DNA from: a virus
Taxonomy: Duplodnaviria; Heunggongvirae; Uroviricota; Caudoviricetes
Virus record (IMG/VR): IMGVR_UViG_2537562189_000009
Length of the DNA: 64,000 nucleotides
Direction: 5' to 3' (one strand)
In this document: positions 31,801 through 34,800 of the stretch, one piece after another
Numbering within the stretch: position 1 is the first letter of the stretch
Layout of the letters: the number at the start of each line of letters is the position of its first letter
Made by a program: the position numbers

Positions 31801-34800
31801 GACGATCAGGAGCACAGAACAAAACTGTCAAACGGCTGAAGGCCTTTGCTCGTGCTGCATTGACTATATCAATACGCTGCCTAAGGATGAAACACCCCGA
31901 CGCCTCATCAATATTCACTCTACCCACACCATATGAATGATAAATATTTAATGCTGAAAAAACCATTAGACCGTATAACAAACACTCAATCAATACTTAA
32001 CAGAACTTTTATTTTTGACAAACATATTATGTTTTCAACAATATCCTGAGCCAGGTATATTCCAGTATAAGGCTCTGCCGGAAGGAATCTGGAAGAATGA
32101 ATATGGCGCGCTGTACTGGATTCGAACCAGTGACCGATTGCTTAGAAGGCAATTGCTCTGTCCGGCTGAGCTAACAACGACCGCCATCGGGGACCCGCCC
32201 CCGCACCAACAACCCTGTTATCGTGTCGTCTGCTCTTCCTGATAAGCTAATGGCGGTTTGTGATGGTGGCCCTTGCTGGATTTGAACCAGCGACCTGGCG
32301 ATTATGAGTCGCTCGCTCTCACCACTGAGCTAAAGGGCCGGGAGCAGAATAATAACGGTCCGTAATTAATTCCGCAATAAAAAACCCGCTCGGCGGCGGG
32401 TTGTAGAAACTCTTCTAACGTCAGGCATAAAAAGCCCATCATTATGACGAATTTACCACAGATTCCGGAAAAATCAACCTTGTTACCTAGTTACCTTTTT
32501 TAACTGCCGCTCAGCCCATGCTTCTTCAATATCAAACCGGGTCACCAGCGCATCATAGAATTTCTTAACTGTTTTTTCCCATGACGCGCGTGTTATCTGG
32601 TTTGTCACCTCGCATATAGCATTAAATGCCTCCGTTGATGGTAGTCTTTCATAGCCACGACCACCACAACGCTGGCAGTCTCTGATAACAGGCATACCAC
32701 GTTTTACCGACTCTTCACGATGAATGGCGACACCACGCCCACGGCAATCCTTACAGGCGGTGGAAACCTCACCCTTTCCGCCACACTCCGGACAGGCAAC
32801 TTTTACCACCTCCCTGACTTTTTTCCATTCTTCCCAGTAAGACGGATACACACCTTTCGTACACTTTGCCCATACCGGCGGCTTACCATCCGGATACTGG
32901 ACCTTGTTTGTAAAAACTATGCTTTCAATAAATTTTTCCCCATAGCAACAAGGGCACTGCTTTTTACTCGCTGCGCTGCGGGCATAATCCTCAAAAGCGT
33001 ACGAAGCCATAATGCGCATCACTACCGGTTTTATTTCTGCCGGAAGTTTTCTCAACGCCGCCACACGATCGCACCGACGGAGTGCATAATCTGCCAGTAA
33101 TTCTGTTGCCCGCGCCCTGTCATTCATACTGATGCCCATTTTCCCCAGGAACGCAGAAAAACCCATCTCAGCCCGATTCTGTGTCATGCCCTGCGCGGCC
33201 ATCACATCAGTGATACTCAGCGCATCTTTTGACGTTGAGGCCGATGCATCGGTCAGGCAAGGGGATTTTGGGGAGTAGTATTTCGGTAAATCTTCCAGTT
33301 TCATTTTTTGACCTGCTCTTCATGCATTATGGGGTAAATCTTCACCCCCATACGTCCACCAGATACTGGCTGACCACGAACGATATTGATTTCATCAAAC
33401 TGCTCATCGTCCATTAACACTCCCGCATGCGTCAGCGCATCCAGCGGTGCTTTCAGGATATTGTCCAGGTCGCGACGACGCTTATCCGGTGGCTCTGCAA
33501 TCACCTTTATCGCCAGCCTTCCGGACAGGCTTAATTTCAGCCGCTGCTGGCGAACAATAAGCGCCACAGCCCGGCGATAACGCTTTCCCTCCTCCGAGAT
33601 AAAATATGTGCTGCCACGGCGTCGCCAGTAAGTGTTCACCGTCGGCGGGTAAGGTAAAACCAAATCTATGAGCATCAGTCACCTCTTTTACCCAAGTACG
33701 CCAGTTGCAAAGGCGTGATCAAGAAAACGAAAAATTAAATCAACCTGAGAACCATGCTTTTCTTCGAACGCCAGCGGATCCGCATGAAGCTCGTTGTGAT
33801 GCTCCCGACACAGCGGTAGCGTGAAAATATCGTGAGATTTTGTCCCCATTCCGCCCTGACCATGACCAATCAGGTGATGGGGATCGTCGGCTGGCTTACC
33901 ACAACACGCACACGGCTGTGTCTTCACCCAGCGTGTGTATTTCTCGTTAACCCAGCGGCGACGTTTAGGTCGTTTCATAAAAGATTCCGGAGACTCAGGA
34001 TCAACGGCAATGCTGACCACCGTCTTTTCCTGTGGTGGGTTCTGTTGCTGGTGGGCGTGAGGCAGCGGCGCAAGATTTTTTGTGCGCTGTTTCAGTATGC
34101 TGGTGGCGGTCTGCTCTCCCGGTACGATGTCGCTTTCACGGTACATTGAGCGGATTTTTTCCGCACGCAACCCCAGCGAACGACGTAATACCGCTTCCGG
34201 TAGCGCGTCCGCCACCTGATTGCGGACCGCCCACCAGGATAATTCAGCCCGAGATAATTCACGCTCCTGCGTACCGCTTATTGCGTGACGGATGACGTCA
34301 ATCACCCATGCTGTCAGATTTTGTTGAGCAAGCAGCTCCAGTGATTCCGATGTCTGGTCACGCAGTTGGTTGTCGCAGTGCCAGCACAACACCATTGCGC
34401 CGGTACCATAACGGTGAATGACTGTTTCAGTGTGATGGTAATCGCCATTAGGCCACTGGCAGGATGTAACATGACGTAATAGCCAGTCGGACAATGCGCC
34501 AACGCCGCCAGCAGCACGAATCACCCGTTCGTTACTAAAAAACGGCAGCAATGTTTTGTCTTCCGCCAGCGGCTGGCGAACGGCAGGAACGACTCCGGAT
34601 GGCAGATTACGCATGCTTTTTGGTTCCGGTTCCACCAGCACTCGAGGATTATGAAATATCTGTATGGATTCACGGCCCGGCTTAAGGACCACCAGCCCAA
34701 GCTCAGGCACCAGAACAGGTCTAAGTAATACCCGCACGTTACCTCCAGATCCGTTGCTGGAAAGTGCGGGACGCACGTGGTGGGCGGTCGGAATAAGGCA

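Follow-up and report, generated by a model that had tools for sequence, protein, structure and literature searches.

A probable λ-type late-gene switch joined to a Shiga-toxin-phage-type tRNA cassette in the late control region of a Qin-site lambdoid prophage

In phage λ, the late cassette comprises a Q gene of the Qλ family (as defined in PMC9388147), a late promoter pR' with the -10 hexamer TAAATT, a sigma-dependent pause element (AACGAT-GGG; for its role see PMC9388147) 6 nt further on, and an intrinsic terminator with the late genes downstream; the terminated transcript is the 194-nt 6S RNA, and tR' is not followed by tRNAs. In Stx2a phages of the 933W/Sp5 type the order is Q, pR', StxS, tR', ileZ-argN-argO and stx2AB. 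Their Q belongs to the Q21 family (PF06530), their 258-nt leader is processed to the 74-nt StxS, and toxin genes fill the slot that follows the tRNAs. Transcription from pR' of these Stx2a phages is constitutive and, in lysogens, is terminated; a further transcription start has been reported upstream of the tRNAs (PMC7547250).

The locus described here shares features with both systems. It lies in a window of 64,000 nucleotides (IMG/VR record IMGVR_UViG_2537562189_000009), in which Q, pR', tR', the tRNAs and the slot genes are all on the minus strand, as are all features given below. We found the region to be a common lambdoid E. coli late-gene switch combined with a small tRNA cassette as in Shiga-toxin phages. 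More specifically, we consider it likely, at a probability of roughly 85%, that this cassette controls the late genes of a complete lambdoid prophage at the Qin site and is composed of two mosaic modules, i.e., a λ-type Q module and an Stx-type tRNA module. The core of the original prediction (Q, pR' and tR', then tRNA-Ile2 and a tRNA-Arg(UCU) homologous to the Stx-phage cassette) was right, and every feature was found where it had been placed or a few bases away. The block is already known and its genes are annotated: among 5,426 complete E. coli genomes, 846 contain 80% or more of its 471 bp, with annotations that run antitermination protein, tRNA-Ile, tRNA-Arg. The sole unusual feature of the region is a rare 17-bp deletion that damages the arginine tRNA.

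From Q through the leader and tRNAs to the slot, phage mEp460_ev081 (LR597641) is 98.8% identical, and its TolA-like genes and lysis cassette are likewise the same; it differs, as do about 850 E. coli prophages, in having an intact tRNA-Arg that is 17 bp longer. The cryptic Qin prophage of K-12 occupies the same chromosomal site (rspB/ydfJ side) and shares a backbone of hokD, rem, ydfU, Q, ess, ydfR, rrrQ, rzpQ, cspI and gnsB, but it is heavily deleted, has a 250-aa SfV-like Q (ydfT) and no tRNAs, and carries cspB, cspF and ynfU in the slot. In the Stx2a phage Stx2_EH1910 (LC567834), Q is 91% identical (quuQ) and the leader 82%; the -35, -10, pause element and terminator agree, and the same ileZ and argO cassette is found downstream. 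By contrast, a small ORF and a DNA methylase gene lie between tR' and the tRNAs, argN is intact, and stx2AB directly follows argO. Finally, the Stx2e phage phiP27 (NC_003356) is the Stx relative with the highest identity to the cassette (88%). It carries ileZ, an argN decayed with the same scrambled sequence, and argO, although its argO is intact and its tRNAs lie after a methyltransferase gene and before stx2e.

The 273-aa Q antiterminator gene (32483..33304) was assigned to the Qλ family by a Pfam match (PF03589, E = 9e-55). Residues 1-113 and 182-273 align with the Qλ structure PDB 7UBM (phmmer, E = 6e-41), and the intervening residues 114-181 form an insert of about 68 aa that λ Q does not have. 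This assignment bears on the original prediction that the arrangement is that of Stx phages such as 933W: the gene order and the tRNA cassette are indeed shared, whereas the regulatory module is not, given that Q belongs to PF03589 here and to the Q21 family in 933W and Sp5. Moreover, the leader shares no sequence with that of the 933W/Sp5-type phages, including StxS, other than a 24-nt terminator-like hairpin match in the Stx2a Q-proximal region, and a distant blastn search recovered no 933W-type phage. The nearest Stx relative of the Q/pR' module, and its proper comparator, is the Stx2a phage EH1910, not 933W.

A putative pR' (32450..32477), read from the sequence, begins 6 nt beyond the Q stop codon. 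It consists of a -35 hexamer TTGATT (32477-32472), a 16-nt spacer, a TG (32458-32457) and a -10 hexamer TAAATT (32455-32450), i.e., the promoter-like element that had been claimed downstream of Q, with a predicted +1 at about 32443. The hexamers match the consensus at only 8 of 12 positions, which on their own is no better than chance and explains why pR' was absent from the list of a generic promoter scan. The composite motif TTGATT-N16-TAAATT-N6-AAYGAT-GGG was found once in the window and in 0 of 100 shuffles. We regard pR' as credible because this composite is unique, starts right after the end of Q and is laid out like λ pR'. Its last part is a sequence resembling a sigma-dependent pause element, AATGAT-GGG (32435..32443; predicted +1 to +9), which stands 6 nt past the -10 hexamer, as AACGAT-GGG does in λ. 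All 5 relatives in the alignment keep the string AAYGATGGGC unchanged, even SfV and Stx2k, whose leaders have diverged. An ORF of 46 aa whose ATG lies inside the pause element (32442-32302) was rejected, as it has no ribosome-binding site and crosses both the terminator and tRNA-Ile; the equivalent reading frame in λ is 2 codons long.

Conservation of pR' differs between its parts. Phages Evi and Stx2a_EH1910 have almost the same promoter, apart from a single G to C change in the spacer. This spacer, TTTCCGGAATCTGTGG, is conserved, with no more than one change, in phages with about 90% identity in Q, is different in SfV-type relatives and is unrelated to that of λ (the presumed Q-binding element), while the pause element, -10 hexamer and terminator are kept across relatives whose Q-binding spacers diverge. 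Such a pattern is compatible with a Q-binding element, and the 16-nt spacer is probably that element.

Downstream of the pause element we found an intrinsic terminator, tR' (32376..32402), of the form AACCCGC-CGCCGA-GCGGGTT plus a T-tract. In the terminator scan, its hairpin (32402-32383) comprised 7 bp, 5 of them GC, followed by TTTTTTATT. The same hairpin was the strongest helix in the predicted fold of the leader (-18.8 kcal/mol, z = -2.1), so that scan and fold both recovered the short leader ending in a hairpin and T-tract that had been proposed. The terminator is kept in relatives and is labelled as such in the SfV annotation. Transcription from pR' to tR' would yield a leader RNA of about 62-66 nt, much shorter than λ 6S RNA.

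The tRNA cassette follows. Both tRNAs of the original prediction were called by ARAGORN, as tRNA(CAU) at 32264-32339 and tRNA-Arg(UCU) at 32104-32180, in agreement with the Rfam tRNA model (gathering score 29; E-values computed over the whole window). The first, a tRNA-Ile2 of the lysidine type (ileZ), scored 72.5 bits (E = 6e-14) and is apparently intact. It is identical to the ileZ of Stx2a phages at 76 of 76 positions, an identical sequence being labelled tRNA-Ile in RefSeq, and to ileX of K-12 at 69 of 76, the stem differences from the host gene including a compensatory pair (C6-G67 to U6-A67). Positions C4, C5, G68, G69 and A73 are kept; we take these to be the determinants for TilS and IleRS.

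On alignment with Stx2a argN and phiP27, the 84 nt that separate the two tRNAs turned out to be a decayed third tRNA, argN (32181..32256); for the history of ileZ, argN and argO we relied on GenBank annotations and general knowledge. Its acceptor and T arms are kept, its anticodon arm is scrambled and its 3' CCA has been lost to the deletion. We also considered the remnant as a functional, odd tRNA and rejected this: neither ARAGORN nor Rfam called it, the anticodon arm is scrambled, and its fold, despite an 8-bp acceptor-like stem, does not stand out from shuffles (z = -0.13).

The tRNA-Arg gene argO (32104..32180) is damaged. From position 2 to position 77 it agrees fully with the intact allele, from which the argO of 933W/Sp5-type phages is 1 position off. 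Relative to FDAARGOS_497, mEp460 and Stx phages, however, a 17-bp deletion (junction 32181/32180) has replaced G1 by U. The 1-72 mismatch noted earlier is thus real, with U1 opposite C72, and stems from a lineage-private deletion that took away G1. A 34-nt query spanning the junction was found in 1 of the 5,426 complete E. coli genomes, and in this single genome RefSeq does not call the tRNA-Arg. A mismatch at 1-72 weakens both the binding of EF-Tu and the choice of cleavage site by RNase P. With G1 and the 5' flank lost, the arginine tRNA is probably impaired, i.e., poorly processed or poorly used in elongation; both ARAGORN and Rfam still accept it (59.1 bits, E = 3e-10, vs. 68.0 bits for the intact allele), so impairment is here a prediction from general tRNA biology.

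Between the tRNAs and the holin gene lies the slot that holds the toxin genes in Stx2a phages. As had been claimed, it contains TolA-like lipoproteins and no toxin: two proteins with Pfam TolA C-terminal domains (PF06519) have signal peptides ending in lipoboxes, one of 142 aa (30678..31106; E = 2.4e-23; lipobox IIGC) and one of 124-131 aa (30132..30527, with the RefSeq start at 30506; E = 1.3e-14; lipobox VAGC). No stxA or stxB directly follows the tRNAs, and searches of Pfam and PHROGs detected no toxin domain in the slot. It additionally holds a 108-aa gene of the phrog_2873 family (31640..31966; E = 2e-69 over the full PHROGs profile) that is unannotated in RefSeq, a 43-aa DUF3927/TciB-like small membrane peptide (31473..31604; RefSeq; phrog_1470, E = 1.5e-11), and the prophage sRNA STnc100 (31217..31407; Rfam RF02076, 114 bits against a gathering score of 47), which has been described as a PasD relative (bioRxiv 10.64898/2026.05.13.724894). 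A second intrinsic terminator detected by the scan (29989..30006) lies just upstream of the holin gene. The first late-gene block is the lysis cassette (28325..29937), comprising the P21-type holin essD, ydfR, the lysozyme rrrQ and the spanin rzpQ (PF04971, PF07041, PF00959, PF10721; RefSeq names); head and tail genes lie further on, on the same strand.

Taken together, these elements suggest how the region may work. RNA polymerase would start at pR' and would pause in the first transcribed bases as sigma70 re-binds the -10-like AATGAT-GGG. Without Q, transcription would end at tR' and leave an RNA of about 65 nt, a counterpart of λ 6S RNA. As Q accumulates after induction, it would bind the pR' spacer DNA and load onto the paused polymerase, which would then ignore tR' and the second terminator, so that readthrough would cover the tRNAs, the accessory slot and the lysis, head and tail genes. 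The second module, an Ile2-X-Arg(UCU) cassette, begins a few bases from the T-tract of tR' and most likely has a weak sigma70 promoter of its own, from which the tRNAs are probably expressed in the absence of Q as well. Intact tRNA-Ile2 would add AUA-reading capacity, and argN is a dead remnant.

The candidate cassette promoter (32349..32377) consists of TTGCGG (32377-32372), which overlaps the tail of tR', 17 nt, and TATTAT (32354-32349), which ends 9 nt before the mature 5' end of tRNA-Ile. The conserved arrangement suggests that the tRNA cassette has its own promoter, and therefore that the tRNAs may not depend on Q alone. A different model, implied by the original prediction, is that they have none and come solely from the 5' portion of the late transcript that Q antiterminates, together with leakage through tR', i.e., as a strictly late supplement. 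The geometry would allow this, tRNA-Ile starting about 37 nt past the T-tract of tR' on the same strand; the candidate promoter matches the consensus at only 8 of 12 positions and went unflagged by the generic scan, and TATTAT could have been conserved through common ancestry or because processing of the 5' leader constrains it. Yet TATTAT and its distance to tRNA-Ile were unchanged in 6 of 6 contexts. One of these is Stx2k, whose upstream DNA is otherwise unrelated and provides another -35, TTGATT, at 16 nt. Furthermore, dRNA-seq of EHEC Sakai reportedly detected a primary start upstream of the tRNAs that appears to drive them (PMC7547250), and by analogy this start may be the same as the TATTAT element. 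Codon usage points the same way: AUA and AGA are avoided by the late structural genes, whose expression is high, which leaves little obvious demand for a purely late tRNA supply. We therefore consider exclusively Q-dependent supply unlikely, though it is the strongest of the alternatives, and expression of the tRNAs by Q readthrough only is probably incomplete as a model.

Rare-codon demand in the prophage lies in accessory, lysis, early and defence genes and not in capsid or tail genes. AUA and AGA stood at 10.0 and 6.1 per 1000 in the prophage compared to 5.2 and 1.6 in the host flank. They rose to 18.3 and 13.1 per 1000 in the genes just after the tRNAs, vs. 4.3 and 2.9 in the structural genes and 0 and 0 in the major capsid and tail tube genes. 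The conjecture that the tRNAs favour translation of the 36769-39561 cassette fits these counts on the demand side, AUA reaching 36.6 per 1000 there vs. 5.2 in flanking host genes (33 AUA in the 902 codons of the prophage's ABC-three-component defence cassette), while the AGA part of the conjecture is weakened by the damage to tRNA-Arg. The prophage tRNAs match the codon bias of the accessory and defence genes, not that of the structural ones.

Another possibility concerns the leader itself: beside its part in antitermination, the main product of the region might be the short pR'-tR' RNA, made constitutively in lysogens and acting in trans as an Hfq-binding sRNA like StxS. Lambdoid pR' promoters are constitutive, and the terminated RNA is abundant in the cases of λ 6S RNA and StxS (PMC7547250). 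U-rich single-stranded stretches lead up to the GC hairpin and run of 6 U at the end of the leader, and past the pause element the leader is partly conserved in SfV and Stx2k relatives, although Q loading and common descent could explain that conservation. Homology to StxS is confined to the terminator-like hairpin, and an Rfam search of the leader returned no family above threshold; its one match, to Trp_leader (25.6 bits against a gathering score of 41), was dismissed as a terminator-driven chance match. On balance, a role as sRNA seems improbable.

It is still more doubtful that the tRNA cassette is mainly a recombination or module-boundary element with no present translational role, decaying as argN already has and argO is starting to. 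Homology breaks exactly at the junction between tR' and the cassette, which occurs in three upstream contexts, its middle tRNA varies among phages (Arg-UCG, Lys-UUU or decayed), and argO is newly damaged here. However, ileZ is 100% conserved relative to Stx2a phages while its flanks are just 84-88% identical, which argues for purifying selection; the compensatory pair that separates ileZ from ileX likewise speaks against decay, and the damage to argO is private to one of the genomes searched, so that intact argO is the norm. Lastly, it is hardly credible that the promoter-like and terminator-like sequences arose by chance and the late genes are driven from elsewhere: even though 4 kb contained 11 promoter-like sites (7.8 expected) and 5 terminator-like sites (3.1 expected), the composite motif absent from all shuffles comes directly after a gene of the Qλ family, agrees with λ pR' in each of its elements and is also conserved among relatives.

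Returning to the two-module reading, one extension of it is speculative and, in our view, probably wrong. The cassette's own promoter might keep tRNA-Ile2 on in the uninduced lysogen, with the extra AUA decoding needed for full expression of the ABC-three-component system and other AT-rich accessory genes, and in parallel the RNA of about 65 nt might be a StxS-like sRNA in many non-Stx E. coli. If true, the prophage would contain an internal codon-supply dependency.

Beyond correct annotation, in which the arginine tRNA of the deletion lineage is best treated as a probable pseudogene, the region has little significance, as it combines a textbook λ-type switch with a long-known Stx-phage tRNA cassette. 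It is nonetheless a clean example of lambdoid module mosaicism. The same unit of Q, leader and tRNAs precedes stx2 in EH1910, whereas in the present prophage it precedes TolA-like lipoproteins, STnc100 and a TciB-like peptide, which shows how cargo alone can set a non-toxigenic prophage apart from an Stx phage.

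All features under study lie on the minus strand. Between the stop codon of the Q antiterminator ORF (33304-32483, 273 aa; Pfam PF03589, E = 9e-55), which lies upstream of the tRNAs, and the first tRNA we again found the putative promoter TTGATT (32477-32472), 16 nt, TAAATT (32455-32450) and the hairpin AACCCGC-CGCCGA-GCGGGTT followed by TTTTATT (32402-32376), the latter detected in a terminator scan and forming the main element of the predicted leader fold; the coordinates and strings of the original prediction, including those of both tRNAs, are therefore correct. Taken alone, the terminator is unremarkable relative to chance (5 terminator-like sites found vs 3.1 expected in 4 kb), and the promoter matches 8 of 12 consensus positions and is absent from generic promoter-scan output. 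Reading the sequence further, a TG is found two bases upstream of the -10, which is followed in order by CGTCAT, AATGAT and GGG. The λ pR' promoter (NC_001416) reads TTGACT-17-TAAATT-TGACTC-AACGAT-GGG, and thus shares the -10 hexamer, the 6-nt spacing and the AAYGAT-GGG block; in λ, this block (AACGAT-GGG) acts as the sigma-dependent pause element at which Q is loaded (PMC9388147). The full composite motif has a single match in the window and none in 100 shuffles, and the pattern TAAATT-N6-AAYGATGGG also matches at the corresponding position in λ, phage Evi and Stx2a phage EH1910. Five aligned leaders all retain AAYGATGGGC, the -10 and the terminator, including those of SfV and an Stx2k phage, where the -35 and spacer differ. 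Unlike the promoter or terminator alone, the composite promoter/pause motif thus appears to lie beyond chance.

Q proteins fall into three unrelated families, namely Q21 (PF06530), Qλ (PF03589) and Q82 (PF06323) (PMC9388147). The Q protein found here aligns with the Qλ structure 7UBM (E = 6e-41) in two blocks, residues 1-113 and 182-273, separated by an insert of ~68 aa. PF03589 also comprises the Q proteins of λ, SfV and EH1910, whereas Q of a classic Stx2a phage (933W/Sp5 type) belongs to PF06530; the control module is therefore λ-type and not 933W-type. The proposed 933W-like arrangement hence stands as regards a late-control region followed by Stx-type tRNAs, but not as regards the Q/pR' module. 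The nearest Stx relative of this module is EH1910 (Q 91% and leader 82% identical), in which the order is Q, leader, small ORF, methylase, ileZ, argN, argO, stx2AB.

ARAGORN called exactly two tRNAs over the 64-kb window, namely tRNA(CAU) (32339-32264) and tRNA-Arg(UCU), or argO (32180-32104), and both matches are clearly above chance in the Rfam tRNA model (72.5 and 59.1 bits; gathering score 29), as the original prediction had anticipated. The former is identical to Stx2a ileZ (76/76) and matches K-12 ileX at 69/76 positions, with one compensatory difference from ileX (C6-G67 to U6-A67); RefSeq labels the identical sequence tRNA-Ile. The 84-nt inter-tRNA spacer is a decayed argN (tRNA-Arg UCG): it aligns with Stx2a argN in the acceptor and T arms, and its anticodon arm is scrambled in exactly the same way as in phiP27. 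Neither ARAGORN nor the Rfam tRNA model calls this remnant. In phage Evi the middle position is occupied by tRNA-Lys(UUU); the cassette therefore has the form Ile2-X-Arg(UCU) with a variable middle position. This tRNA-Lys (LR597642, 3341-3417) follows a Q and leader of the same type as here, and the record annotates 0 of its 3 tRNAs.

A 17-bp stretch (CCATTATCGGTATTCAG) present in the common allele (that of FDAARGOS_497, mEp460_ev081 and Stx phages) is missing from the window; it covers the CCA terminus of the argN remnant, the spacer separating the tRNAs, and G1 of argO. As a result, U1 of the tRNA-Arg, formerly the discriminator base of the argN remnant, stands opposite C72, so the suspected 1-72 mismatch is real and traces to this deletion. 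The Rfam score is 59.1 bits for the deletion allele vs 68.0 for the intact one, and RefSeq leaves the tRNA-Arg uncalled in the single genome sharing the deletion. Of 5,426 complete E. coli genomes, a 34-nt junction query matched one; the lesion is private and recent. With a 1-72 mismatch and a changed 5' flank, a tRNA should be a poorer substrate for RNase P site selection and a poorer ligand of EF-Tu, and we predict both defects for tRNA-Arg(UCU).

Homology to Stx cassettes starts at ATTGC(A/G)GAATTA, right at the end of the tR' T-tract. Here we found a second putative promoter (TTGCGG, 32377-32372; 17 nt; TATTAT, 32354-32349), 9 nt before the mature tRNA-Ile 5' end. TATTAT is found unchanged at this distance in all six sequences compared, which represent three different upstream contexts, and in Stx2k unrelated upstream DNA provides TTGATT 16 nt from it. 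A dRNA-seq start upstream of the tRNAs has been reported in EHEC Sakai (Sy et al., PMC7547250). We consider it moderately likely that expression of the tRNAs does not depend on Q alone.

Codons were counted per module using gene calls transferred from a near-identical genome. The prophage exceeds the flanking host genes in both AUA (10.0 vs 5.2 per 1000 codons; p = 0.01) and AGA (6.1 vs 1.6; p = 7e-4). Values were 18.3 and 13.1 in genes directly downstream of the tRNAs (slot, lysis, csp) and 36.6 and 11.1 in an AT-rich cassette (36769-39555, 33% GC); head, tail and fibre genes (4.3 and 2.9) did not differ from the host flank, and the major capsid and tail-tube genes contain neither codon. By these counts the tRNAs suit the codon use of accessory, lysis, early and defence genes rather than that of the bulk late proteins. 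The conjecture that they supply codons to the AT-rich cassette is reasonable on the demand side; it would need Q-independent expression, and the intact tRNA would serve its AUA half only. In the near-identical genome, this minus-strand cassette carries the annotation of an ABC-three-component system, made up of a DUF2326 protein, middle component 6, a third component and one small ORF; it is inserted between the prophage replication genes and hokD. The hokD/sok segment (35151-36367, minus strand) is a tandem duplicate (unit ~614 bp, copies 98-99% identical), single-copy in reference genome CP151161; only the promoter-distal copy has a full Rfam sok match (36318-36492).

In the slot between argO and holin, where Stx phages carry stx, the first ORF (31966-31640) has a full-profile match to phrog_2873 (E = 2e-69) and is probably a missed gene, with no RefSeq annotation in an identical genome. 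It is followed by a TciB-like DUF3927 peptide, the STnc100 sRNA (31217-31407; RF02076, 114 bits) and two TolA C-terminal-domain proteins with lipoboxes IIGC and VAGC. STnc100 has been related to PasD and linked to PF03589 Q genes (bioRxiv 10.64898/2026.05.13.724894). Domain and profile annotation yielded no toxin among the slot genes, in agreement with the expected TolA-like lipoproteins; where a toxin would sit, the slot carries colicin/phage-exclusion-like genes and sRNA genes. The lipoproteins adjoin the TciB-like peptide (together 30132-31604, minus strand), a member of a family that bears the label 'resistance to colicin / inhibition of cell division', and as an idea only, these proteins could be periplasmic decoys against TolA-using colicins or filamentous phages. 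The first TolA-like gene is intact here and a pseudogene in CP151161. A second intrinsic terminator (30006-29989) lies between the last TolA-like gene and holin, followed by essD, ydfR, rrrQ and rzpQ. At least two terminators therefore separate the lysis genes from pR', which fits a need for processive Q antitermination.

The prophage (~47 kb) lies at the Qin site, with rspB and ydfJ on either side, and looks complete; the nearest sequenced phage is mEp460_ev081 (98.8% identity across Q, leader, tRNAs and slot). Rfam matches elsewhere in the prophage include DicF (43661-43712, plus strand), adjoining dicB/ydfD, IS009 (3342-3540, minus), overlapping a tail-fibre assembly gene, and a cspA-type thermoregulator (27704-28119, minus) upstream of cspI. 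From 58834 to 64000 collinearity with the reference genome is lost: ynfG breaks off at ~58862, and the different DNA that follows carries a second sok (62403-62577, plus) and an sRNA-Xcc1 match (59150-59238, plus), suggesting that a further mobile element has entered the ynf operon.

Together, the anatomy and homologies point to a λ-type Q/pR'/pause/tR' switch that would gate the late operon by transcription from pR', pausing and antitermination, fused at its terminator to an Stx-phage-type tRNA cassette that probably has its own promoter. At least 80% of the 471-bp block is present in 846 of 5,426 complete E. coli genomes. The block is already known, involves no departure from known lambdoid biology, and has its genes already annotated in hundreds of genomes.
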